Shown: positions 1-41,636, numbered from the stretch's first letter. The stretch: DNA of 64,000 nucleotides from Phycisphaeraceae bacterium (GCA_015709595.1 CP054178.1:1553205-1617204), one strand, 5' to 3'. Program-made: numbers and translations. The notes: generated from the letters alone by a model not told the origin.

Positions 1-1825
1 CGCGGCGCTCGTAGGAGCCGTCGATGAAGTTGTTCGCGTCGCCGTCGGCCGCGCTGCCGAGAATGTTGAGATCTCTGGCCGTGGTGCCGCTCACCGATTC
101 GACCTTGATCGCCAGCGCGCCGGAGGCGCTGGTGCTTTCGATCAGCAGGCCGTCGCCGGTGTCGTTGACGCGGGCGGTGATCGCCAGCCCGCGCGAGTTG
201 ATCTCGTCGATGACGTCCTGCAGGGTGACGGAGTCGGCGTCGATATCGACCGTGGCGGTGGCGCCTTCGGCGTCCTGGATGCGGAACGATCCCTTGGCGA
301 TGCCCCGACCGTAGTTCAGTTCGCTCAGCCGCGTCGAACCCGCCACGTACTGATGCTGCAGGTTCGTGCCCCGCACTGCGGTGCTGGCTACGCCTGACCC
401 GCCCGTGGACAGACCCAGGGCGGCGGCGGCGTCGCCCGTGATGATGAGATTGCCCGACCCGCCCGAAGTGTCTTTGGCCAGCAGGCCGCTGCCCGCGTCG
501 TTGTACGTCAGTTCGATGTCCACTCCCGCGCCGGACGCCGCGGCGTTGATCGCGCTTACCAGGTCCGCGAACGACTCATAGGCGTCCAGTCCGTTCACGG
601 TGACGTTGGCGCCCGAGCGGTCCTGCAGCGTGATCGACGCGGCCGACCCCAGCCCGGCGCCGCCGTTGAGGCGCGAGGTCAGCACGCTGTTGATGCCGGC
701 CAGGATGCGTCGGCCCGCGATGGTGTCCGACGCCACGCCCGCGTTCAGCAGTCCCAGGTCGCGGGCCGTGCGCTCCCCGTTCGTGCCCGCGCCGGACACG
801 ATGAACTGGCCCGCCTGCCCGGTGTTGTCGGCGAGCTGCAGCGACACGCCGTCGGCGGCGATCGACGCAGTCACCGCGCCGCCGGTGATCTCGTTGATGC
901 GGTCGATCACGCCCTGAATGGTGGTGACGGCGTTCTCGGTGCCGCTCCCGGTCGTCCGCTTGCCCAGCACGATATTGTGGACCGTTCCGGCGCGGTCAGT
1001 GATGCGGAAGTCCGTGGTGTTCAGGCCGCCGTTGATGAGTACGCCCGCGCCGTCATTGAGCGACGCCAGGGACGCGCCGCCGGCCAGTCGATTGATGATC
1101 GACCCGGTGATGGACGTTCCCCCGCCGTCATCGCCGGCGATGCCAAGGTCGGTGGCGGTGAAGTAGCCGGAGGCGTCGGCGATGGTGAGCGTCCCCCCGC
1201 CGCCGGAGAGGTCGGCGATGGTCAGCCGGTCGCCCGAGACCGATGCTCGCACGCGCACGCCGGCGGCGCCGTTGATGGCGTCGAGCACGTCGCCGACGTC
1301 GCCCGCCCTGGACAGGTCGATGGTGGCGGACGCACCGCTCTTGTCGGTGATGACGATCTTGCCGCGGCGCACGCCCTCGCCCCCGTTGAGCGAGGCAAGC
1401 TGGGTGGTTGCGGCCAGTTGCCCGCGCCCGAACTCGAAGGTGAGATCGGTCAGCCCCAGAGCCGTGGAGTCGCGGTCCGCGAACCCGCGTGAAAGCTGCT
1501 GGCTGGTGGAGACGAGCCGATCGACGAGGAAGGTATACGTTCCGGGCTGCGCCCCGGCGCGGGCGGCTCCGCTGAGCACGGACTCGCTCGACGATGCGGC
1601 GCGGGCGGACTGAAAGATGGAGTCTGTTCGCAGGCGCGTGGCGGCGCGGCTCATGTTCAGCAGCCGCGCGTTGATATCCAGCATGGCGGTCTGCTGCTGC
1701 TGCAGCGAGGCGATGCGTTGCTGAATGGACGCCTTGCCCCGTCCTTCGATGGCCAGCAGGCGCTCGATCAGCGTGGCGGTGTCGATGCCGCTGATAAGTC
1801 CCACGCCGGATGAGATCGAGCCCAT
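1..1825 (-). CDS. fliD: Flagellar filament cap protein FliD (hook-associated protein 2), partial; 3-prime end lies outside the window
   Basis: Absent from the ORF track because it runs off the edge. My reverse-complement translation from 1825 gives MGSISSGVGLISGIDTATLIERLLAIEGRGKASIQQRIASLQQQQTAMLDINARLL..., a typical FliD N-terminus. Further in it reads ...ITARVNDTGDGLLIES.... AAGGA lies about 6 nt upstream of the ATG. Confidence 0.75.
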   Translation of the reverse strand, partial: MGSISSGVGLISGIDTATLIERLLAIEGRGKASIQQRIASLQQQQTAMLDINARLLNMSRAATRLRTDSIFQSARAASSSESVLSGAARAGAQPGTYTFLVDRLVSTSQQLSRGFADRDSTALGLTDLTFEFGRGQLAATTQLASLNGGEGVRRGKIVITDKSGASATIDLSRAGDVGDVLDAINGAAGVRVRASVSGDRLTIADLSGGGGTLTIADASGYFTATDLGIAGDDGGGTSITGSIINRLAGGASLASLNDGAGVLINGGLNTTDFRITDRAGTVHNIVLGKRTTGSGTENAVTTIQGVIDRINEITGGAVTASIAADGVSLQLADNTGQAGQFIVSGAGTNGERTARDLGLLNAGVASDTIAGRRILAGINSVLTSRLNGGAGLGSAASITLQDRSGANVTVNGLDAYESFADLVSAINAAASGAGVDIELTYNDAGSGLLAKDTSGGSGNLIITGDAAAALGLSTGGSGVASTAVRGTNLQHQYVAGSTRLSELNYGRGIAKGSFRIQDAEGATATVDIDADSVTLQDVIDEINSRGLAITARVNDTGDGLLIESTSASGALAIKVESVSGTTARDLNILGSAADGDANNFIDGSYERR

Positions 1826-30480: not shown

Positions 30481-32352
30481 TCACGAACCCCCCGCCACCG
30501 CCTTCCCCTCGCTCTCCGCCAGATCCTCCGTCTCGCCGCTGGCGTCGCCGCCGGGGGCGGTGGGGATGACCGGGGCCACCTTGGCGGCCTCGCGGTGGAG
30601 GGATTCCACGGACGGCGCGACCTCGATGCCCGTCGCGCTCGCTCCCGTTCGCTCTCCACCACGACTGGCACCCACCCCCGCTCCCTCACGGTCGCGGCTC
30701 GCTTTCAGGCCTGGGCTCGCTTCCCGCTCGTGGCTCGCTTCGCCATCGAGTATCGACGCAGGCACACTCCCACCCGCCGGCCCAACCGCTCCCTCACGGT
30801 CGCGGCTCACTTCTTGGTCGCGGCTCGCTTCCGGACCTGGGCTCGCGTGCGCTTGCACGAACTCCGCTCCCTCACGGTCGCGGCTCGCTTTCAGGCCTGG
30901 GCTCGCTTCCCGCTCGGGGCTCGCTTCGCCAGCTCCCTTCCGCTCCACCAGATTGATCCGCCGCCACGGTCCGCGCTCGAAGCGCCAGGCCATGGTCAGC
31001 CCGAACAGAATGATGTACACGCTCGCGCCGATCCACGGGCCCACGCTGGTCCACTGGGGCACGTACTCCACCAGCAGCCAGCCGCCCAGCACGATGAAGA
31101 CCCACGAGTAGATCATGGTCATCACGCCGGGCCACACGGTGTCGCCCGCGCCGCGCAGGGCGCCGGAGTACACCACGCCCAGGGCGTCGGCGGTCTGGAA
31201 GATCGCGGCGCAGATCATCAGCCGCGCGCCGATGGCGATGATCTCCTGGCGCATCTCGGGCGTCACGTTCTGACCACTGGCGAACACCGCCACCAGCGGT
31301 TCGCGGAAGAAGTACATCGCCACCGCGCAGATCGTCATGTAGATCATCGACACCGACAGCCCAAGCCGGGCCCGATGGGCGGCGGTGTCCGGCTGGCCCG
31401 CCCCGATGTAGCGGCCGACCAGCGAACTCACGGCCACGGAGAACCCCACTGCGGGCATGAACGACAGGTGCATGTAGCCCAGCACCGCCCAGCCGGCGGT
31501 CATGTGGTTTTCGCCGAAGCGGCCCACGAGCACGCTCATGAAGATGAGCCAGCAGATGATCTCGTTGCCGAACTGCACCGCCGCGGGCCAGCCGATGCGC
31601 AGCAGGTCGCGCATGGGCGCCCAGCGGGGCCTCCAGGCGGTGCGGCTCCTGAGGGTCTTGTTCAGCCCCGGGCCGAGGAAGATGGCGCAGGGAATCAGCA
31701 GTTCGCAGGTGGTGCCGATGATGGTGCCGATCGCGGCGCCGTACACGCCCATCGCGGGAATGCCCAAGGGCTCCACGCCGAAGATGAACACGAAGTTCGC
31801 ACCCACGTTGACCAGGTTGCCGACGATGGCGGCGACGGTGATCACCTTGGGCCGATGCAGCCCGAAGAAGAAGTGGTGCATGGCGCGGCCCACCAGCAGC
31901 AGCACGCCGCCAACCAGCAGAATCTGCGCGTAGCCGGTCTCCAGGCGCACCAACTCATCGGAGTGACCCATCCAACTGAACACCAGCGGCGAGAGAGCCG
32001 CCATCGGCAGCAGGATCAGCGCCCACATGGCGATGCTCAGCCACACGCCCGCCCAGGCGTACTGGGGGCCTTTCTCCGGCTGCCCCGCGCCCAGGTTCTG
32101 CGACACGTAGGTGTTGATGACCGTGAGCACGCCCAGCCCGAAGGCCATGGGGGTGAAGGTCCAGATGCCGCCGTTGCCCTGCGCGGCGACCTCCAGCGCG
32201 CCCACCTGGGCCACCATGAGCTTGTCGATGAACTGCATGACCGTGTAGCTGGTCATGGTCAGCACCGTGGGCCACGCGATCGCCCACACCTCGCCCAGGG
32301 GCGAACGTGGCGGCGTGAAACCATCCTGCGATGTCGGTGCTGGCGCAGTCAT
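30481..32352 (-). CDS. MATE family efflux transporter with repeat-derived C-terminal extension
   Basis: WPTVLTMTSYTVMQFIDKLMVAQVG..., 12 hydrophobic segments and YSGALRGAGDT. Start set at MTAPAP (32352), because the track N-terminal extension overlaps der. The last 150 aa or so are encoded by REP-A copies. Confidence 0.85.
   Translation of the reverse strand: MTAPAPTSQDGFTPPRSPLGEVWAIAWPTVLTMTSYTVMQFIDKLMVAQVGALEVAAQGNGGIWTFTPMAFGLGVLTVINTYVSQNLGAGQPEKGPQYAWAGVWLSIAMWALILLPMAALSPLVFSWMGHSDELVRLETGYAQILLVGGVLLLVGRAMHHFFFGLHRPKVITVAAIVGNLVNVGANFVFIFGVEPLGIPAMGVYGAAIGTIIGTTCELLIPCAIFLGPGLNKTLRSRTAWRPRWAPMRDLLRIGWPAAVQFGNEIICWLIFMSVLVGRFGENHMTAGWAVLGYMHLSFMPAVGFSVAVSSLVGRYIGAGQPDTAAHRARLGLSVSMIYMTICAVAMYFFREPLVAVFASGQNVTPEMRQEIIAIGARLMICAAIFQTADALGVVYSGALRGAGDTVWPGVMTMIYSWVFIVLGGWLLVEYVPQWTSVGPWIGASVYIILFGLTMAWRFERGPWRRINLVERKGAGEASPEREASPGLKASRDREGAEFVQAHASPGPEASRDQEVSRDREGAVGPAGGSVPASILDGEASHEREASPGLKASRDREGAGVGASRGGERTGASATGIEVAPSVESLHREAAKVAPVIPTAPGGDASGETEDLAESEGKAVAGGS
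30678..30931. repeat. Cluster of three REP-A copies (30678, 30786, 30864); first and third are extended 68-nt near-identical units 186 bp apart
   Basis: CCGCTCCCTCACGGTCGCGGCTC was read three times. Copies 1 and 3 continue identically through GCTTTCAGGCCTGGGCTCGCTTCCCGCTCG. Confidence 0.9.
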
Positions 32353-32641
32353 GCAAGAACCGGGGTTGTGGGGTGATGAAGGGGTGAGTGTAGCCCCCCG
32401 GACGGGTTGGTCGAGGGGCGGTCTATCGGGGGACGCTCCGGCAGTTGAGGATGAAGCCGCGGCGGCGCGGGGGCCCCGCCATCCCATCCGGCAATGGCCC
32501 GGCAGTGGCCGGGAAACCACGAGTCGCCGCGCGGCAGGCGGCCAGGACGTGTCGCCAAAGAGCGGAAATGGCGACACGTTGTTCGCATGTGTCGCTGTGG
32601 ACGACCGGTGGCTTGTCGCCCCCCGCCTATCATCCCCGTTC

Positions 32642-34123
32642 ATGCCCCTGCCCCAGGTTGCCATCGTCGGCCGGCCGAATGTCGGCAAGTCCAGTCTGCT
32701 CAATGCCTTGAGCGGGCGGCGCGTGTCGATCGTCGATCCCACGCCGGGCGTCACGCGCGACCGGGTCTCCTCCATCATCGAACTCAGCGCCCCCGCCGAG
32801 ACGCCGCGAGGCACCCCGGGCCGGTGGGTCGAGCTCATCGACACGGGCGGGTACGGGGTCTACACCGCCGAGGGCAAGCGGTTTGATGATGTGGGTGTGG
32901 ACCTGTCGGCCCTGACGCCCGGGATTGAACAGCAGATTCGTTTCGCGGTGGAGAAGGCGTCGCTGGTGCTCTTCATCATCGACGCCCAGACCGGGTTGAC
33001 GCCGCTGGATGAGACGGTCGCCGGTCTGCTCCGCAAGGGGGGGCATGCCGACAAGGTGCAACTGGTCGCCAACAAGGTGGATGATGAATCGTGGGAGTCG
33101 CACGCGGCGGAGGCCGCCTCGCTGGGGCTGGGCGAGCCGCTGGGCGTCTCCGCCACCACGCGATACGGTCTGCGGCGGCTTTCCGAGCGGGTGTACGAAC
33201 GACTGGGGGGCGTCAAGGCGGCTCGCAAGGACGCGGAGCCGGACAAATCCGAACTCACGTTCGCCATCGTGGGCAAGCGCAACGCGGGCAAGAGCACGCT
33301 CATCAACGCCTTGGCGGGCGAGGAGCGGGTGATCGTGTCCGAGATCGCCGGCACCACGCGCGACTCGATCGACGTGCGCTTCGAGATCGAGGGGCATACC
33401 CTGGTCGCCATCGACACCGCCGGGCTGCGCAAGCGCAAGAGCATTCACGAGGACGTGGAGTACTACTCGCTGCGCCGGGCCCTGGCGGCCATCCGGCGGG
33501 CGGACGTGTGTGTGCTGCTGATCGACGCCACCGAGCCGGTGTCGCAGGTGGACAAGAAGCTCTCGCAGGAGCTGCAGGAGCAGTTCAAGCCCACGGTCAT
33601 CGTGGTGAACAAGTGGGATCTGGCGGCGAAGAAGGGGCTGAAGCCGGAGGACTACGCCGAGTACCTGACCGCCGAGCTGCGCGGGCTGGACTACGCGCCG
33701 GTGGCCTTCATCAGCGCCAGGTCGGGCGAGGGCGTACGCGATCTGGTGGCCATGACCATCAACCTGCACCAGCAGGCGTGCCACCGCGAGAGTACGTCGA
33801 ACCTGAACGAGGCGATCCGCGGCATCATGGCGGAGCGCGGACCTTCGTCACGGTTGGGTACGCAGGCGCGGGTGTATTACATCAGCCAGGTGGCCACGAA
33901 CCCGCCGACGATCGTGCTGATGGTCAACGATCCGAAACTCTTCGAGGGGCAGTACGAGCGATATCTGCTCAACCGCCTGCGCGAGGAGCTGCCCTTCAGC
34001 GAAGTGCCGATCCGGCTCTTTTTCCGCCCCCGCAAGCGCATGGAACTGGGCGCGATGAAGCACCGCGGGCGTCGCCGCGAACAGACCACGGAGTTCGGCG
34101 AAGAGGTCGGCGACGAGTCGTGA
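32642..34123 (+). CDS. der: Ribosome-associated GTPase Der (EngA)
   Basis: Two GTPase domains, VAIVGRPNVGKSSLLN and FAIVGKRNAGKSTLIN, plus a KH-like C-terminus. Start at MPLPQVAIVG. Confidence 0.95.
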   Translation: MPLPQVAIVGRPNVGKSSLLNALSGRRVSIVDPTPGVTRDRVSSIIELSAPAETPRGTPGRWVELIDTGGYGVYTAEGKRFDDVGVDLSALTPGIEQQIRFAVEKASLVLFIIDAQTGLTPLDETVAGLLRKGGHADKVQLVANKVDDESWESHAAEAASLGLGEPLGVSATTRYGLRRLSERVYERLGGVKAARKDAEPDKSELTFAIVGKRNAGKSTLINALAGEERVIVSEIAGTTRDSIDVRFEIEGHTLVAIDTAGLRKRKSIHEDVEYYSLRRALAAIRRADVCVLLIDATEPVSQVDKKLSQELQEQFKPTVIVVNKWDLAAKKGLKPEDYAEYLTAELRGLDYAPVAFISARSGEGVRDLVAMTINLHQQACHRESTSNLNEAIRGIMAERGPSSRLGTQARVYYISQVATNPPTIVLMVNDPKLFEGQYERYLLNRLREELPFSEVPIRLFFRPRKRMELGAMKHRGRRREQTTEFGEEVGDES

Positions 34124-34219: not shown

Positions 34220-35581
34220 ATGTCCGTTCCCACCGACCTCGACTACGCGCTGGATGATCACGGGACGGAGCGCCCCATCGCCGAGATCGCGCGGTCGTTC
34301 ACGCTCGATCCGCGTATTCCTGCGCTCGTGCCGGGGTTCGATGCGCCGTTCTTCCAGGCGGGGCTGGCGGGATATTCCGACGGGGCGATGCGCCTGATCG
34401 CCCGGCGGCATGGCTGCCCCTTCTGCGTCACCGAGGCGCTGCTCGATCAGACGCTCATCAACGGCGGCAAGGGGCGCACGCGCGAGGATCCCGACCTGCT
34501 GGCCGAGGAGTGCGGCACCGGCGATCCGGACGAGAACATTCCCGGCTCGGCGCGCGGGCTGGTGGATCATCCCATCGCCGGGCAGATCATGGGCACGTTT
34601 CCCGATCAGATGGCCCGCGGGTCGCTGCTGCTGGTGGGCATGGGGCACGACGTGATTGATGTGAACCTGGCCTGCCCGGTGAAGAAGATTCGCCGCCGGT
34701 CACGAGGTGGGCACTTCCTCATGGACCCGGTCGGCGCGATAGAAGTTCTGCGAGCCGTGCGCCAGGCGGTTCCGTCGCATGTGCCCTGCACCGTGAAACT
34801 CCGCCGCGCGTGGGACGACACGCCGGAGATGGCGCGCCACTTCGAGCGCATCTTCGAGGCGGCGTACGAGCTGGGCTATGCGTGGGCGACCGTGCATTGC
34901 CGCACTGTGGTGCAGAAGTATCATGGGCCGGGTCGCTGGTCATTTCTGCGCGACCTGACGCGACGCTACCCCGATCGGCTGATCTTCGGCTCGGGCGACG
35001 TGTGGCGCGTGGAGGACATCTTCGCCATGCTGGACCTGACGGGTGTGCATGCCGTGAGCGTGGCCCGCGGGTGCATCGGCAATCCGTGGATCTTCCGCCA
35101 GGCGCGGGAGTTGATGTCCGGAATGAGGATGGCAGGCGGGACGCCCGCCCCACTGACGCCCACCCCGCCGATGTCCGCCACACCGACGCGCGAAGTGAGC
35201 CGCGACCGTCAGGGGGCGTATGACCCACACGAAGTGAGCCGCGACCGTCAGGGAGCGGATGACCCACACGAAATGAACCGTGACCATGAGGGGGCGTATG
35301 ACCCACACGAAGTGAGCCGCGACCGTCAGGGAGCGGATGACCCGTTCACTCCGACGCCGCCCACCATAGACGAGCAGCGCCAGGCCCTGCTGGAGCACTT
35401 TGACCTCGCCGTCGCCTTGCACGGCGAGCGATCCGCCTCGCAGCAGATGCGGAAGTTCGGCATCAAGTTCAGCCGCCATCACCCGCGGGGCGAACAGGTG
35501 AAGGCGGAGTTCATCCGCTGCAAGACCGTCGCCGACTGGCGCGCCGTGGTGGAGCGGTGGTACGCAAATCTTTCGGAGTGA
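34220..35581 (+). CDS. tRNA-dihydrouridine synthase (Dus family) with a 39-bp tandem repeat insertion
   Basis: LAGYSDGAMRLIARRHG, AGQIMG, IDVNLACPVKKI and TVKLR are Dus TIM-barrel motifs. The insertion lies between the barrel and the helical domain. Confidence 0.85.
   Translation: MSVPTDLDYALDDHGTERPIAEIARSFTLDPRIPALVPGFDAPFFQAGLAGYSDGAMRLIARRHGCPFCVTEALLDQTLINGGKGRTREDPDLLAEECGTGDPDENIPGSARGLVDHPIAGQIMGTFPDQMARGSLLLVGMGHDVIDVNLACPVKKIRRRSRGGHFLMDPVGAIEVLRAVRQAVPSHVPCTVKLRRAWDDTPEMARHFERIFEAAYELGYAWATVHCRTVVQKYHGPGRWSFLRDLTRRYPDRLIFGSGDVWRVEDIFAMLDLTGVHAVSVARGCIGNPWIFRQARELMSGMRMAGGTPAPLTPTPPMSATPTREVSRDRQGAYDPHEVSRDRQGADDPHEMNRDHEGAYDPHEVSRDRQGADDPFTPTPPTIDEQRQALLEHFDLAVALHGERSASQQMRKFGIKFSRHHPRGEQVKAEFIRCKTVADWRAVVERWYANLSE
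35192..35345. repeat. 39-bp tandem repeat x4 built on REP-A in reverse orientation (GAAGTGAGCCGCGACCGTCAGGGRGCGKATGACCCACAC)
   Basis: Units start at 35192, 35231, 35270 and 35309. They translate as EVSRDRQGAYDPH / EVSRDRQGADDPH / EMNRDHEGAYDPH / EVSRDRQGADDP. Confidence 0.9.
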
Positions 35582-35829
35582 GGCGTGCGGCAGCCCTCTT
35601 TCCGTGAGGCGTCTGGTCCACGATGGACACGGATGAATGGGATCGGCGGGGCCGATGGCGAAAGCCGGGACCGCGGCGTCAGCACTGGTCCGCTGGACCA
35701 GTCCGTGCGGGGGATCACTTTTTCCCACGAGTTTGTCACACTCTGGGGTCGGCGAACGCCCATATCTGGAGAGGGGCGCGATGGGCTGAAGCCGCCGGGG
35801 CGCTCACCCGCGGCACGTTTCTCAACCCC

Positions 35830-36672
35830 ATGATCGATCCGACGGGACCGAACGGCATGGTGGACCTGGGAGTCAAGATCGACCTCAATGACCTCGTTGC
35901 CGCGGCGTCAGAGCCCGGTGGAGAACTCCTTCCGTTTCTGTCGCCCGAAGCGCCGCCTCCGATACCTGACGCGGTCGTTGAAGCACGTCAGCGCATCATC
36001 GTCGCTCTTGTGCGGTACAACGAGCAGTTGGAGCACGTGCTGCCTGGCATCGTTTACCGCAGTCTGGATGCCAAGCAGTCGCTGCGCTCCGCGTCATTTC
36101 GTGGGGATTCCGCCGCGGCCGCACGCCACCATTCGGAACGGGTGCGGCTGCGGCGGGTGCTTTTTGACCTGAATGAAACGGCGGCACAGGAGATCGCCAT
36201 CGCCGTTCGGGAGATCGACAACGACAGCGCCGTCAGGTGGCTGCGCCGAGTCGATCAGGCCCACTTCCCGGAGACCATGCGCACCACCACCGTTGACATG
36301 ATGCAAACGTGGCTGACGGGGCGCGATCTTGATGAGACGACAAGGGTGAGGGTTCAAGCGGCGTACCGGTCGTTTGTACCGGTCCGCGACGCCATCTGGC
36401 GAACGGCCAAGCCACTGGTTCTGCGGATGCACGACGAAGTGTCGATGTACGTCGCCGGATCGGAGAATAATGATGTCTTTGAGAGGCTTGATGAGGTCGA
36501 TGCGGCCATGGCACAAGCGTGCGCCACAGCTCATGCTTCCGTCATCACGCTGCTGCCGCCGGAGGAGCAGACGGCGTATCGAAGTGCCTTATCGCGGCTT
36601 GAAGGTCAGCCGGGACCGGCCTTCGACATCCGAGAAGCACTGAGGCGCCGCCGCGATTCCTCTCTCCAGTGA
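35830..36672 (+). CDS. Hypothetical alpha-helical protein
   Basis: 280-aa ORF from MIDPTGPNG. No family recognised. Segments such as DLDETTRVRVQAAYRSF and LLPPEEQTAYRSAL echo the helical domain of the 37077-38741 protein. Confidence 0.45.
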   Translation: MIDPTGPNGMVDLGVKIDLNDLVAAASEPGGELLPFLSPEAPPPIPDAVVEARQRIIVALVRYNEQLEHVLPGIVYRSLDAKQSLRSASFRGDSAAAARHHSERVRLRRVLFDLNETAAQEIAIAVREIDNDSAVRWLRRVDQAHFPETMRTTTVDMMQTWLTGRDLDETTRVRVQAAYRSFVPVRDAIWRTAKPLVLRMHDEVSMYVAGSENNDVFERLDEVDAAMAQACATAHASVITLLPPEEQTAYRSALSRLEGQPGPAFDIREALRRRRDSSLQ

Positions 36673-36902
36673 GGGCGCGCTCACGATCATAACGAGGTCG
36701 GTGCGTTGCGTTGGGATTCCCCTCTCAACCCCAGCACGGGCGAGTAGCGTGGACACGCCGCTTTGGGCTTGGTCCCGCGCCCGTTTCGCTCGTGCGGGGC
36801 AACCACCGGCAACGCAGGGCCGTGGCCCATGCCACCCGAGGCGCTTCGACTGGACGGATACCTTTCGATGAGCGCGGCAGCGAACCCCCTTCTGCCAAAG
36901 AC

Positions 36903-36924
36903 AACGCCCGCATTCGCGGGCGTT
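36903..36924 (-). terminator. Hairpin AACGCCCGC-ATTC-GCGGGCGTT, likely the original terminator of the epimerase gene
   Basis: 9-bp perfect stem. On the minus strand it is followed by GTCTTTGG, and it lies 45 nt downstream of the displaced stop codon copy at 36969-36971. Confidence 0.4.
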
Positions 36925-36968
36925 GACGTGAATCAAGTGTCATGTGCCGGCACGACAGAGGCGCGAAT

Positions 36969-37018
36969 TCACCACCCCTTCCGCCCCCGCCCCTTCGCCG
37001 CGCTCGTCGCCCGCGCGG
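36969..37018. repeat. Direct repeat, left copy (displaced duplicate of the last 16 codons plus stop of the epimerase gene)
   Basis: 47/50 identical to 40410-40459. On the minus strand it reads TARATSAAKGRGRKGW-stop, versus AARATSGAKGRGRKGR-stop at the real gene end. Confidence 0.85.
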
Positions 37019-37076: not shown

Positions 37077-38741
37077 TCACTTCAACGGTGCCGGCAACGG
37101 GTACTGCTCCTGTTGGCTCTGAGTCAGACTCCGAAATGCGAGCTCGCACGTCGCATTGATTTCACGTCGTCGCTGCACCATCAGATCATCCATCCTCCGC
37201 TGGGAGGCATCCATTCGGTTCATCTTCGCCGCCGGGTCGCGAACCGACAGCATGGCTTCCACGCGGTCGTCGCTGGCGTTGGTGATCGCCAGGTGAAGTT
37301 GCTTCACGGTGTGGACATGATTCTGCCTCAACGTCTCAAGGGCCGCACGCTGGTCATCGTTGATGGACACCTCGTTCAACAGCAGGTCAAGGTACCTGAG
37401 CGCGTGATCGGCCTGGTGCTGAAGCCACAGCGTGCGGCGGCCATCATATCGCTCGCGCAGCGCCTGGGCATCATCGGCCGATAGCATCTCCGTGATCATG
37501 AGGAGGTAGTTTCGATTGAGCACGCGAATTCGCTGGTGGTGTTCATATTGTTCTTTGATTCGACGGTCCCACTCTCCGGCGCCGCCGTGCAGCCCCTGCA
37601 CCCAGACACTGCTGCCATCCGTCCGCGAGTGCTCGGCGATGCGTTTCCATTGATGGCGCATCTCTCCGACCATCCATGCTCGACGGGCCAGGAGCGCCTC
37701 GTTGAGCAGCCGTTCGTACTCGTTGACCAGGATCACGAACTGGTCAGGATCACGACTCTGTTGTGGAGTGATCTTCAGTACTTCGAGAAGATCAAGCACA
37801 TCGATCCGTTCCTCACTCAGGATCCCAGCCGGGACAAGGTTGCGTCGAGTGTTCCACTGCCGCCACCGCCTCCAACCATCCTGCTGATCGTCACGCATGA
37901 CCGCCATGAGGGCCTCGATCGCCGCCCCGTTGCGCGCCTCCTGTTGCTCGGCGCACTCCGAGATGAATCGCTGCCATTCGAGGTTGCCGACATGGTACTC
38001 GAGAGAACCGTGCCGTTCATTCTCAAATCGGTTCTTGATGGCCTGCTCGTTCGTTCGCTGTGACTGGACCCACTCGCGGAAACCCGACTCGAAGTCGCGA
38101 TAGATTGCGTCGACCAAGGATTGCTGCTCCGGATCAAGGTCCGCGATGATGATGAGGCGGTCCAAGGCAGCCCGGGAAACCTCCATGCTCCAGGGGCGCT
38201 CGTCCGGCATCGCCCATTGACCCCGAGCGGATGAAGCGACCAGAACCGGTGCGATCAGGATCGTCAGATGACAGCTGAGTTTTGCGGATGATCCGAGAGG
38301 GATGGTCGCGTGTGTCGTCGATCGGGCGCACCAGAGAAGGGCGCCAATGAGAAGAAGATTCCGGAGCACGCCCGCTCCGGGACTGCCGGTCGCCCACCAT
38401 TGGTCGAGTGCACCGAAACACCCACATTCAGCGGACGGGTTCGTGATCCAGATCGCGACAAGATACACGGTGAATCCAGCAATCAAGACGGCGCTGGCGT
38501 ACAGTGCGTTCACGACTTGACGTCCGACAAGCAGACGGACACCGAGCCCGATCTCGATGCCGGATATCGCGAGGATTGTGAATCCAGCAAGGGATCGGCT
38601 GACGCCAACTCCGACGAGCGCCAGAATGCCATCGCCAGGATCGATGGCCTTCAGTAACCCAGCGATACCGATCAGCGCCCCTGCCAGCATGGCGACGAGA
38701 CGCTTGCCCAACGGAAGCGGCATACTGGGGGTTCTCATCAT
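37077..38741 (-). CDS. MauE/DoxX-like membrane domain fused to a long helical domain with LTXXQ-like repeats
   Basis: Four N-terminal TM helices and the motif SAECGCFG typical of MauE-family proteins. About 390 aa of helical sequence follow, with LDPEQQ, ITPQQS, LSADDAQAL and INDDQRAAL, which are CpxP/Spy-like LTXXQ motifs. Confidence 0.6.
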   Translation of the reverse strand: MMRTPSMPLPLGKRLVAMLAGALIGIAGLLKAIDPGDGILALVGVGVSRSLAGFTILAISGIEIGLGVRLLVGRQVVNALYASAVLIAGFTVYLVAIWITNPSAECGCFGALDQWWATGSPGAGVLRNLLLIGALLWCARSTTHATIPLGSSAKLSCHLTILIAPVLVASSARGQWAMPDERPWSMEVSRAALDRLIIIADLDPEQQSLVDAIYRDFESGFREWVQSQRTNEQAIKNRFENERHGSLEYHVGNLEWQRFISECAEQQEARNGAAIEALMAVMRDDQQDGWRRWRQWNTRRNLVPAGILSEERIDVLDLLEVLKITPQQSRDPDQFVILVNEYERLLNEALLARRAWMVGEMRHQWKRIAEHSRTDGSSVWVQGLHGGAGEWDRRIKEQYEHHQRIRVLNRNYLLMITEMLSADDAQALRERYDGRRTLWLQHQADHALRYLDLLLNEVSINDDQRAALETLRQNHVHTVKQLHLAITNASDDRVEAMLSVRDPAAKMNRMDASQRRMDDLMVQRRREINATCELAFRSLTQSQQEQYPLPAPLK

Positions 38742-38763
38742 GCATTGACCCCTGTACGGGCAA

Positions 38764-39090
38764 TCACTGGCACGTGGTGCCGGTCAGATAGGCGCCCTCG
38801 CAGTACTCGTAGGCGATCCAATCGCTCTCCGCAGCGTACGTGCCGGATGAACAGCCGAACCACTTCACGAAGACCCAAACACGGGTTCCGGTGCCGTAGC
38901 ACTGCGTCTTGCCCTGACCAACGGCGGGGACGCACTTCAGCATGTTGACCCGTCCGCGCACGCACATGGGTCCGCTCGTGCTATCGGGGCATGTGATGGG
39001 GTCACAGTCGGCTGTGCCGCACACGTAGTCGAAGACGGCCTGATAGCAGCCGAGCGGCCCGCCGCCTCCGGGATCCTGAGCGGCCAGCAT
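38764..39090 (-). CDS. Small cysteine-rich protein (108 aa, 10 Cys)
   Basis: C at positions spread through ...GCYQAVFDYVCGTADCDPITCPDSTSGPMCVRG...KCVP...QCYG...FGCSS...EYCEG...TTCQ. The in-frame sequence upstream of the ATG encodes a signal-peptide-like ARIILVAFTIAAAGMLAA but has no start codon. Confidence 0.5.
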   Translation of the reverse strand: MLAAQDPGGGGPLGCYQAVFDYVCGTADCDPITCPDSTSGPMCVRGRVNMLKCVPAVGQGKTQCYGTGTRVWVFVKWFGCSSGTYAAESDWIAYEYCEGAYLTGTTCQ

Positions 39091-40205
39091 GCCTGCGGCG
39101 GCAATCGTGAAAGCGACGAGGATGATTCTTGCGTGAGTACTCGTCGTCCAGTCTCCTGCTTTTGGGGTCGATTCGGAGCTCCTGTGCCCAGAAAAGTGAA
39201 CCAGGCGATCAATGCCGTCAGTCCAAGACGTACCAGCAGGGCTGTTGAATCGAAGGCATTGCGATCGATGGCTGGCGCGTCATCTTCCCGTTGAAAGCGT
39301 ACTGTTTCCGTAGAACTCGACCAATCGCCCTGTCCGGTCAGGTCGTAGTAGGTCAGTGGCTGATCGGGTCGGAAGGCAACGAAGATCCGCGGAACGTCCT
39401 GTGGCGTTGCCGGAAGGCGAAAGTCATCCGAAGCAATGCCGCGAAACCGGATCCGAATCAACCATGTATTGCCGATCCTCAGGTTCTTGCGGATGAGCAT
39501 CCACTCGCCTTCTGATCCGTCCGGCTGGGCGTGTACTTGCCACAATGAAATGTCGGCGTTGTTCTGCGCGTCCCGAGCGGCCGCGATCGCCCTGATGTGC
39601 CGGTATCCGGCCGGCGCCTCTGGGAGTGGCTCGATGGGGACCAAGTCTCCGTAGGTCTTCGCGAATGCCTTCACTGGATCGCAGGTGAAATCGAACACAG
39701 TTTCCGCTGTTCGGAGACCGCCAACATTCGGAGCGCTGTATGGCGATCGTTCAATCTCCATGCGATCCCATCCGTTGCCGAACCATGCCAGTTCGCGGCA
39801 ACGTCCGATGAATTGCGTGCCGATCGGAAAGTCATGGCGGTCCGACCTGGGTCGATGAAACCACTCCCACTTCGACAGCGAAGGATGCGATCGGAAGTTG
39901 ACGTATTGGAACGAAACGCCGGCTTCGCCACCCCAGATCAGTCCGTCGAACAGAAACCCGCCGTGTTGTGGCTCAGTGGTGGACTGCAAGTCCGGAGAAG
40001 GTCGCATCGTCGAAAACAGGATATCATCTGCAACGGAGTCGATACGCCGCGCGAATCCGTAGACCTCGAATGCCCGTTCAGACTTGAGATTTGTCGGTGG
40101 TGACTCGACCGGTGGTGTTGTCGGCTGCTGCCAAGACAACGAAACCAGCAGAGCCATCAGTGCGGTGAAAGACCAAGTCGACGTCATGCGCCACCCCGAG
40201 AGCAT
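38937..40205 (-). CDS. Secreted hypothetical protein with C-terminal TM helix; the 3-prime 150 nt are probably not genuine coding in this frame
   Basis: Signal peptide MTSTWSFTALMALLVSLSW, a Trp/Phe-rich beta-looking body, and TM LGLTALIAWFTFLGTG. The tail QESSSSLSRLPPQACWPLRIPEAAGRS... overlaps the Cys-rich ORF and looks out of frame. Confidence 0.55.
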   Translation of the reverse strand: MLSGWRMTSTWSFTALMALLVSLSWQQPTTPPVESPPTNLKSERAFEVYGFARRIDSVADDILFSTMRPSPDLQSTTEPQHGGFLFDGLIWGGEAGVSFQYVNFRSHPSLSKWEWFHRPRSDRHDFPIGTQFIGRCRELAWFGNGWDRMEIERSPYSAPNVGGLRTAETVFDFTCDPVKAFAKTYGDLVPIEPLPEAPAGYRHIRAIAAARDAQNNADISLWQVHAQPDGSEGEWMLIRKNLRIGNTWLIRIRFRGIASDDFRLPATPQDVPRIFVAFRPDQPLTYYDLTGQGDWSSSTETVRFQREDDAPAIDRNAFDSTALLVRLGLTALIAWFTFLGTGAPNRPQKQETGRRVLTQESSSSLSRLPPQACWPLRIPEAAGRSAAIRPSSTTCAAQPTVTPSHAPIARADPCACADGSTC

Positions 40206-40409
40206 GCATTTCGGAGGGTTTCCGAAGACAATGCCACGATAACGCTGCAGAACGTCGTGTCAAGCGGGAATTGGGTGACCCCCCCCGAGGCGAGCATGGA
40301 AGTCACTTTCCAACAACGGGTTGTGGCTGATCGAACTTTCTGCGTCTTTTTGCGATTGCTCAACTTCCGGAGATCATCAGCAGCTCGGCGCGTCCTCCTC
40401 AACGGCCCC

Positions 40410-40459
40410 TCACCGCCCCTTCCGCCCGCGCCCCTTCGCCCCGCTCGTCGCCCGCGCGG
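40410..40459. repeat. Direct repeat, right copy (actual 3-prime end of the epimerase gene)
   Basis: See 36969-37018; 47/50 identity. Confidence 0.85.
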
Positions 40460-41636
40460 CCGCCTTCTTCTTCCCGCCGCCTTTGGCTGACGCCGGCTTG
40501 GCCGCCGTCGGCCGCGGGCCGTACCCGGCGGGGATGCCCTGCTTCCACGTGTCGAGTTTGCGGCTCTCGGCGATGTAGCCGTCGCCGGGGATCGGCTTGG
40601 ACCCGTGGGTGAACGCGCTCACCTGGCTCTTGTGGGCCGTGCGGGCGGTGTACTTGGCGGTGAACTCGTCATGAATCCAGCGATAGGTTTTCTCCATGCC
40701 CACGCGCAAGGATGTGTCCGGCTCCCAGTTCAGATACGACTTGATCTTGGTGTTGTCGGAGTTGCGGCCCGCCACGCCGCGCGGCGCATCGAGCTTGTAG
40801 TGGCGCTCAAGCGTGATGCCCGCGATCTCCTCCGCGATATCCACCAGCTGGTTGATGGTCACCAGTTCCGACGAGCCGAGGTTGATGGGTTCGAGGATGT
40901 CCGAGTTGGTGATGAGGTTGATGCCCTTCACGCAGTCGTCGATGTACATGAACGAGCGGGTCTGCGTGCCGTCGCCCCAGATCTCGATGTCGTGCTTGCC
41001 GGAGATCTTGGCGGCGATGACCTTGCGGCAGATGGCGGCGGGGGCCTTCTCGCGCCCGCCCTCCCACGTGCCGTTGGGGCCGTAGACGTTGTGGAAGCGG
41101 GCGACGCGCGTGGCGATGCCGAAATCCTCGCGGAAGTGGCGGCACATGCGCTCGGAGAAGAGCTTCTCCCAGCCGTAGCCGTCCTCCGGCAGGGCGGGGT
41201 AGGCGTCGGCTTCCTTGAGCGCGGTGACGTGAGGGTCCTTCTGCTTGTCGGCGTTGTACACGCAGGCGGAGGAGGAGTAGAAGAAGCGCTTCACGCCCGC
41301 CTCCTGCGCCGCCAGCAGCATGTGGGTGTTCACCAGCACGCTGAGCATGCACAGGGCCTTGTTGTTCTCGATGAAGCCCATGCCGCCCATGTCGGCGGCG
41401 AGCTGGTAAACCGTGGTGGCGCCGCGGCAGAGCTTGCGGCAGACCTTGAAGTCGCGGCAGTCGCCCCGCAGGGGGCCGGCGTAGTTCTCCACGTCGGGGA
41501 AGACCTGATACCACTCGTCCAAGGGCTTGATGTCCGCGGCGCGGATGGTCTTCACGCCCTGCTGGCGGAAGTAGTTGACCAGATGCCCGCCGATGAACCC
41601 GCCGGCTCCGGCGATGACGACGACTTGATTCCTCAT
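40410..41636 (-). CDS. GDP-mannose 3,5-epimerase-like NAD-dependent epimerase with Lys/Arg/Gly-rich C-terminal tail
   Basis: VIAGAGGFIGGHL, QLAADMGGMGFI, FFYSSSACVY, YGWEKL and RFHNVYGPNGTWEGGREKAPAAICRK closely follow the plant/bacterial GME pattern. The tail is ...KGGGKKKAAARATSGAKGRGRKGR. Confidence 0.85.
   Translation of the reverse strand: MRNQVVVIAGAGGFIGGHLVNYFRQQGVKTIRAADIKPLDEWYQVFPDVENYAGPLRGDCRDFKVCRKLCRGATTVYQLAADMGGMGFIENNKALCMLSVLVNTHMLLAAQEAGVKRFFYSSSACVYNADKQKDPHVTALKEADAYPALPEDGYGWEKLFSERMCRHFREDFGIATRVARFHNVYGPNGTWEGGREKAPAAICRKVIAAKISGKHDIEIWGDGTQTRSFMYIDDCVKGINLITNSDILEPINLGSSELVTINQLVDIAEEIAGITLERHYKLDAPRGVAGRNSDNTKIKSYLNWEPDTSLRVGMEKTYRWIHDEFTAKYTARTAHKSQVSAFTHGSKPIPGDGYIAESRKLDTWKQGIPAGYGPRPTAAKPASAKGGGKKKAAARATSGAKGRGRKGR

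Follow-up and report, generated by a model that had tools for sequence, protein, structure and literature searches.

MauE has only just been proposed as a third class of bacterial membrane enzyme that generates disulfides, after DsbB and VKOR. MauE proteins from two phyla replaced DsbB in E. coli, and MauE was argued to be a generalist disulfide-forming protein in many phyla (Gonzalez et al., bioRxiv 10.64898/2026.03.05.709764). The same preprint places the active site at a CXC motif, usually CGC followed by Phe-Gly, in the periplasmic loop between transmembrane helices (TM) 3 and 4; close to the predicted quinone site, TM1 has a conserved Lys and TM2 a conserved Glu. It found these features to be either necessary or conserved in the MauE proteins that took over from DsbB. 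It assigns 8.2% of MauE entries to thioredoxin fusions and others to a separate, unspecified category of non-thioredoxin fusions, and mentions neither LTXXQ nor CpxP. We analysed a 64,000-nt stretch of DNA from a Phycisphaeraceae bacterium (GCA_015709595.1, CP054178.1:1553205-1617204; hereafter the window), in which three minus-strand genes encode a putative membrane-anchored protein (A), a small Cys-rich protein (B) and a MauE-like membrane protein (C) fused to a long helical domain (D). To our knowledge, no partners or clients of MauE are known outside the mau cluster. The locus offers a compact natural test case, bringing together MauE, a chaperone-like domain and a Cys-rich candidate client, with no thioredoxin-fold partner encoded in the operon.

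We propose that A, B, MauE and D may form a periplasmic module dedicated to the oxidative folding of one disulfide-rich protein, a reading to which we give about even chances. An earlier reading of the window, made from the sequence alone (the sequence-only reading), had suggested a self-contained envelope module, and this idea holds in view of the MauE match, the recurring gene order and the conserved Cys skeleton described below. Its linkage of MauE with a Cys-rich client stood up, whereas its further step, the oxidative folding of B by MauE, can be put only conditionally.

The N-terminal part of the fusion protein was compared with Pfam. The MauE family (PF07291) matched residues 16-139 with 57.8 bits against a cut-off of 27, in agreement with the sequence-only reading, and the same model also matched 8 of 17 aligned relatives. 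The DoxX membership suggested alongside it (PF07681 / PF13781) found no support, the best match (DoxX_3) reaching 17 bits against a cut-off of 25. The CXC motif was present in all 13 aligned module MauE sequences and was followed by Phe in 11 of them. The window protein carries Lys31 in TM1 (LLKAID) and Glu63 in TM2 (GIEIG), and both residues were kept in all aligned module MauE sequences spanning those helices. Judged by these sequence-level tests, the N-terminal domain is a bona fide MauE. A fifth hydrophobic segment (TM5) aligned with the signal peptide of unfused D homologues, for example the D protein of L001 (L numbers denote the loci and contigs compared). Metagenome gene calls start the fusion protein at Met7 (38723), giving 548 aa. 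We also observed that fusions keep a signal-peptidase-like site after TM5 (window 38208-38279), with A-x-G/A before the putative cut and QW after it; D may be cleaved off MauE after insertion of the fusion protein.

A word-based homologue search with the fusion protein returned only the query, while those with A and with B each returned the query and one further protein. The family came to light only when 1.84 billion cluster representatives were searched exhaustively with HMMER; this gave 204 matches, the best 150 of which were classified with local hidden Markov models (HMMs). Among these 150, 8 clusters were MauE-D fusions and 40 were D alone, in proteins of ~320-500 aa that mostly had a signal peptide of their own; in ~100 clusters MauE stood alone or was joined to C-terminal regions of other kinds. 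In HMM-confirmed neighbourhoods the order A-B-MauE-D recurred at 10 or more divergent loci whose flanks are unrelated, bearing out the co-occurrence of these genes. MauE and D were fused in the window and L002-L008, L011/L012, L013-L015, L023 and L024, and the order was kept as four genes in L001/L010, L018 and L020 (in the last, MauE was uncalled but readable in the gap). L016 had B followed by the MauE-D fusion, and the partial contigs L017 and L022 fitted the same order. The domain fusion noted in the sequence-only reading is thus present in the window but optional, MauE and D being separate genes in several relatives.

Module proteins were 20-40% identical across loci. The flanking genes were different housekeeping genes at each locus, which marks exactly these three or four genes as the conserved unit. 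The stop codon of A and the start codon of B overlapped by 4 nt in 7 of 8 locus types; this arrangement implies that A and B are co-translated. Between L001 and the window, A, MauE and D were ~40% identical and B was 69% identical. Across eight modules, the similarity matrices of A, B and C-D were congruent (Pearson r = 0.92-0.93, Spearman 0.22-0.46), a correlation driven by two clades.

The three minus-strand open reading frames (ORFs) of the sequence-only reading (37077-38741, 38764-39090 and 38937-40205) were recovered, reading in the window as 554 aa, 108 aa (10 Cys) and 422 aa. 'Tightly packed' does not fully describe them: the 108-aa ORF and the 422-aa ORF share 154 nt, read in different frames, an arrangement unusual for genuine genes. 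This overlap is explained by a single substitution seen against metagenome contigs whose DNA is ~99% identical to the window region (L002-L009) and which showed no indels relative to the window within the A, B and C-D genes. At base 39143, all seven covering contigs (L002-L008) read CGATGAGT, compared with CGACGAGT in the window. In these seven contigs the TGA of gene A, after 354 codons, overlaps the ATG of a 126-aa protein B. The T-to-C change in the window therefore removes the stop of A and the start of B at once: the 422-aa ORF is a run-on reading to 38937, and the 108-aa ORF, the only one in gene B with a standard start codon, is left without an export signal. The window-type variant was recorded elsewhere, as P0002 (108 aa, 3 contigs) and as P0004 (406 aa, NCBI Phycisphaerales metagenome-assembled genome (MAG)), so ACG at this position may be a real strain polymorphism. 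The window module itself is probably not fully functional in this strain, the start codon and signal peptide of B being lost.

For protein B, the sequence-only reading had the number of Cys residues right (10) but not the length, which is 126 aa in relatives with the signal peptide included. In L002-L008 the signal peptide reads MSTHARIILVAFTIAAAGMLAA and is followed by the mature start QDPGGGG, leaving a mature protein of ~104 aa in which 8 of the 10 Cys are at family-conserved positions. Nine B proteins from different clades, sharing 20-30% identity, were aligned. Seven Cys columns were invariant and an eighth was offset by the alignment in one of the nine members, confirming that the Cys pattern is conserved; the number of Cys was even in every member (8, 10 or 12). 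A signal peptide was found in every B member examined, with a mature start that was usually Q-G/D-P-P/G-G-G-G, and the nine proteins had no conserved Trp and no CXXC. B had no family match in Pfam and no sequence match in the PDB. A match to the X8 domain extended over 19 residues at E 0.01 and was put down to chance.

Domain D had been likened to the CpxP/Spy chaperones because of its repeated motifs, and the corresponding Pfam family (LTXXQ, PF07813) gave a divided answer. In the window protein the match (residues 455-546, E 0.0011) stayed below the cut-off, with 20 bits against 24.3, whereas at the family level 5 of 17 relatives matched in the C-terminal unit, with a best E of 1.5e-5. One of the 17 matched Metal_resist, a Pfam family related to LTXXQ. 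Searched singly against PDB sequences, the fusion protein had no meaningful match; when 41 D sequences were combined into a profile, the best PDB match was the CpxP/Spy relative ZraP (3LAY; E 5e-4, 22 bits), in the N-terminal part of D. Motifs of the form L-[TSDN]-x-x-Q recur in D (LDPEQ, ITPQQ, INDDQ and LTQSQ), and the D family has no conserved Cys column. At family level these matches point, tentatively, to homology with LTXXQ-type proteins, and we call D LTXXQ-like rather than a member of LTXXQ.

The two LTXXQ/ZraP-like units of D were homologous to each other (hhalign probability 96%, E 4e-9) and were separated by a family-specific middle region of ~150 aa. By this profile comparison D arose by internal duplication and has two LTXXQ-like units in tandem. 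CpxP, Spy and ZraP are homo-oligomers of ~140-aa subunits with one LTXXQ unit each, and since they act as oligomers of one unit, a single-chain pseudo-dimer would be a reasonable picture of D. Unfused D proteins have their own signal peptide, which aligns with TM5 of the fusions, so that D is predicted to be periplasmic in both the fused and the split arrangements. A neighbouring 349-aa ORF (35623-36672) was considered as a paralogue of D and rejected, as it had no significant similarity.

Protein A had been described as a secreted 422-aa protein with a signal peptide and one C-terminal TM helix. The N-terminal signal-like segment and the single hydrophobic helix were both found; neither the length (354 aa) nor free secretion held, A being predicted to be membrane-anchored. 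Its layout is a signal peptide, a ~290-aa periplasmic domain predicted to be all-beta or beta-rich and carrying the motif FDGLxWG, the C-terminal TM helix and a basic tail. The predicted compartment of this domain is common to mature B, the MauE active-site loop and D. No Cys is conserved in the A family, and no sequence match to A was found in Pfam, NCBIfam, PADLOC or the PDB. The promoter match upstream of A was weak (1 site compared with 0.5 expected by chance).

Table 1. Features of the A-B-MauE-D module and of the islet that carries it, in window coordinates.
Feature	Coordinates	Residues	Strand	Remarks
Gene A	39141..40205		-	354 aa + stop in near-identical strains; 422 aa in the window
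TM helix of A	39186-39242	322-340	-	hydrophobic segment, basic tail after it
Sigma-70-like promoter match	40236..40263		-	TTGACA-16-TATCGT; ~30 nt upstream of the ATG of A, inside the islet
Gene B	38764..39144		-	126-aa precursor in relatives; 108-aa ORF at 38764-39090 in the window
Single-base difference	39143		-	ATGA in seven related contigs, ACGA in the window
Gene C-D	37077..38741		-	MauE + helical-domain fusion, 554 aa
MauE domain	38325..38696	16-139	-	four TM helices
CGCFG	38412..38426	106-110	-	CXC active-site motif + Phe-Gly, TM3-TM4 loop
Fifth hydrophobic segment (TM5)	38226..38279	155-172	-	homologous to the signal peptide of unfused D
Domain D	37080..38225	173-554	-	all-helical (secondary structure prediction), predicted periplasmic
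D unit 1, LTXXQ/ZraP-like	37869-38171	191-291	-	hhalign
D unit 2, LTXXQ/ZraP-like	37098-37397	449-548	-	hhalign and Pfam LTXXQ
Left direct repeat, 50 nt	36969..37018		+	displaced copy of the epimerase gene 3' end
Right direct repeat, 50 nt	40410..40459		+	true epimerase 3' end including the stop codon

We next considered which organisms carry the module. Its named sources were Phycisphaerales and Phycisphaeraceae MAGs or genomes only, the other copies lying on metagenome contigs. A scan of genome contigs found only a Phycisphaerales MAG, the same as L001, and a scan of JGI metagenomes for close relatives gave no match. The A, B and D families appear to be confined to the Phycisphaerae branch of Planctomycetota. 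One complete 3.84-Mb Phycisphaeraceae genome has three MauE-D fusion paralogues, HRU76_06670 (window-type, P0001), HRU76_07545 (P0025-type) and HRU76_07945 (P0010-type), and one MAG (KJZ68_) likewise has three divergent ones. Relatives of each paralogue type adjoin their own A and B, suggesting dedicated client pairs rather than a housekeeping role. The window module was closest to that of L001, from another Phycisphaerales lineage, and not to its genome-mates.

Full-text literature searched for MauE together with disulfide, Planctomycetes, DoxX, LTXXQ or Spy yielded no description of the module or the fusion, consistent with the view of the sequence-only reading that neither the domain fusion nor the gene trio was a described system. 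What would be new here is a MauE-based disulfide system with a chaperone-like partner in place of a thioredoxin fold, together with the A, B and D families, which are unannotated.

In the proposed mechanism the MauE domain, by analogy with the MauE proteins of the preprint, would work as a DsbB-like, quinone-linked enzyme generating disulfides at the CGC loop on the periplasmic face. TM5 would put D on the same side of the membrane as this loop, and D, as an ATP-independent holdase or adaptor of the Spy type, would keep exported, reduced B unfolded near it. B, with its 8-12 Cys, would then gain its four to six disulfides, and oxidised B would pair with A, anchored in the inner membrane by its C-terminal helix. 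From the gene context, and from the preprint on other MauE proteins, we infer that B is the client of MauE; similarly, D would bind B, and A and B would form a complex. A more specific form of the proposal, which we offer tentatively and think somewhat unlikely, is that MauE-D forms disulfides without any thioredoxin-fold partner: a Spy/CpxP-like cradle, tethered or cleaved between AxA and QW, would hold the cognate client under the CXC loop with no DsbA-type relay, each paralogue serving its own A-B pair. If D does present the client to the CXC loop, this would be a new coupling of chaperoning to oxidative folding, and the module would amount to a transferable set of three or four genes with which a disulfide-rich protein could be made.

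Several points weigh against this proposal. MauE, like DsbB and VKOR, normally passes its disulfides to a thioredoxin-fold protein, and a DsbA encoded elsewhere could relay them, leaving D with another role. The LTXXQ score of the window protein itself lies under the Pfam threshold. AlphaFold2 models of A (two-sequence alignment; predicted local distance difference test score (pLDDT) 38) and of the 554-aa fusion (single sequence; pLDDT 43) were too poor to lend structural support. The D homologue of L019, on a 2-kb contig, has no MauE immediately upstream and adjoins an apparent tRNA-like sequence (read by eye in the translation), and L016 has no A. The congruent similarity matrices would also be expected from plain operon co-inheritance, and the copy in the window lacks the start codon of B.

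Other readings of the same genes were weighed against the oxidative-folding proposal. If MauE-D were a general DsbB-like enzyme, in keeping with the argument that MauE is a generalist in many phyla (bioRxiv 10.64898/2026.03.05.709764), A and B could be unrelated periplasmic proteins sharing the operon by chance. This is very unlikely: a single genome has three divergent fusion paralogues, and each type is accompanied by its own A and B; the gene order persists in at least 10 loci whose proteins are 20-40% identical and whose flanks are wholly different; and start/stop overlaps recur between loci. The layout also recalls mau, a larger beta-rich protein being followed by a small Cys-rich one and MauE, and MauA is likewise disulfide-rich (six disulfides); A and B would then be the large and small subunits of a quinoprotein dehydrogenase, as MauB and MauA are, with MauE as maturation factor. 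No A or B member, however, matched the heavy or light chain of methylamine dehydrogenase (MADH) in Pfam at E up to 1, the absence of a conserved Trp from B leaves no precursor pair for tryptophan tryptophylquinone (TTQ) or cysteine tryptophylquinone (CTQ), MauG, MauD and redox partners are missing from every locus, and A is predicted to be membrane-anchored. We regard this analogy as so improbable as to be nearly negligible.

If B were an exported effector rich in disulfides (a bacteriocin, toxin or adhesin, for instance), the maturation chemistry would stay as proposed above and only the biological purpose would change: B would be the active protein, MauE-D would mature it, and A would protect the producer or dock B. 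We think this unlikely, as no locus encodes a transporter, protease, outer-membrane secretion component or toxin domain, the module proteins (D included) had no match in PADLOC, phage records or plasmid records, and the ordinary Sec signal peptide of B would leave it periplasmic unless it is exported further. In its favour are the fast evolution of B (20-30% identity between clades) with the Cys skeleton kept, the several paralogous modules per genome, a G+C content below that of the flanks in every copy, the position of the window copy between 50-nt direct repeats at the 3' end of a gene, and the mauE homologues noted in candidate clusters for ribosomally synthesised and post-translationally modified peptides (PMC7794033). 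An envelope stress or metal module, with D as a ZraP/CpxP/Spy-like chaperone or regulator, B as a thiolate metal protein and MauE tuning the redox state of B, would fit two matches, that of the D profile to ZraP (zinc resistance-associated protein), its best among PDB sequences, and that of one family member to Metal_resist. It would also fit L001/L010, where the module is immediately preceded, in the same orientation, by genes for an extracytoplasmic function (ECF) sigma factor and a putative anti-sigma protein, but none of the other loci has this pair. B lacks CXXC, CXC and His/Met-rich metal motifs, its always even number of Cys is the pattern of structural disulfides, and MauE acted as an oxidase in the only available functional tests (bioRxiv 10.64898/2026.03.05.709764), all of which make a metal or stress role distinctly unlikely.

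The window copy of the module lies in a 3.4-kb islet bounded by the two 50-nt direct repeats, next to an epimerase gene (40410-41636, minus strand). Only A, B and C-D are inside the islet, and no integrase or transposase was found there. L003 leaves the window alignment exactly at the left repeat (36967); together with the position of the repeats at the epimerase 3' end, this supports an insertion event. A DNA pattern for the empty site had no match in JGI metagenomes, and no flanking repeats were seen at the other module copies examined. These two results, together with the missing integrase and the lack of plasmid or phage matches for D, tell against reading the islet as simply mobile, as does the G+C content. 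Module G+C was below that of the flanks in all seven loci examined, by 2-10 points (5-10 points in six of the seven); L013 (0.595 compared with 0.679) and L016 (0.577 compared with 0.679) are examples, and L010, L020, L023 and L024 were likewise lower. Being common to every module copy examined, low G+C is by itself no evidence of recent acquisition and was dropped as proof of recent transfer.

The 408-aa epimerase/dehydratase-family protein has a Lys/Arg/Gly/Ala-rich tail (...KGGGKKKAAARATSGAKGRGRKGR) that is unusual for the family, and the islet repeat is an exact duplicate of DNA coding this tail (window 40410-40500). The region to the left of the islet (35772-36968) was hypervariable among ~99% identical strains. 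To the left of 36967, L003 has a 356-aa gene and a GerE regulator in place of the window sequence, while L002, L004 and L005 depart at 35772 into a 465-aa gene accompanied by a DUF1573 gene and two others; the 349-aa ORF of the window appears to be a truncated form of the 465-aa gene. Divergence from L002 was 2.5-3% in the epimerase gene and 2.8% in the left region, compared with 0.29% in the islet genes and 0.2-0.4% in the right flank, and this unevenness suggests recombination or mosaicism around the islet.

Further observations were made on neighbouring genes. In two unrelated loci, L010 (5277-7568) and L023 (8076-11025), the module adjoins genes for a sigma factor and for a NapH/CcoG-like polyferredoxin membrane protein. 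A functional link with these genes was considered and rejected: the sigma factors are unrelated, the ferredoxins share 24% identity over ~200 aa of a generic domain, and the proximity is probably due to chance. In the window, a Dus-like gene (34220-35581, plus strand) contains four tandem 39-nt copies (35191-35382), encoding 13-aa repeats HEVSRDRQGA[Y/D]DP near its C-terminal part. The Der/EngA GTPase ORF (32255-34123) reads 622 aa from its first ATG compared with 493 aa in a metagenome gene call, and its N-terminal 130 aa look non-coding.

Finally, the module was compared with the described systems it most resembles. The only NCBIfam match was to BT_3928 (NF045576), whose N-terminal MauE-like region aligned with residues 18-183 of the fusion protein (E 1e-8); the score was 34.7 bits against a cut-off of 250, and the C-terminal domain was unmatched. 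With CpxP, Spy and ZraP (PF07813; 3LAY), D has in common its helical character, its predicted periplasmic location, the L-[TSDN]-x-x-Q motifs and the lack of conserved Cys, and its similarity to the LTXXQ and ZraP profiles is weak but recurrent. Unlike them, D has two units in one chain of ~380 aa, with the ~150-aa region in between, and a membrane redox enzyme is either physically linked to it or encoded alongside it.

With the DsbB-like MauE proteins of the preprint and the MauE/MauD system of MADH maturation the module shares the four-helix core, the CGC-Phe-Gly loop, the TM1 Lys and the TM2 Glu, and here too MauE adjoins a small candidate client, predicted to be multiply disulfide-bonded. 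It differs in that its operon has no MauD/DsbA-type thioredoxin-fold partner, that its MauE is joined to, or lies beside, an LTXXQ-like helical domain of 380 aa, and that B is unrelated to MauA and is accompanied by no MauG, MauB or other mau genes. Compared with DsbB-DsbA and the VKOR-thioredoxin fusions, D has neither a CXXC motif nor a thioredoxin fold and could therefore only present a substrate, not relay disulfides to it; in its overall plan, however, the module would resemble them, a putative quinone-linked membrane disulfide generator being joined to a periplasmic domain that would handle the substrate.

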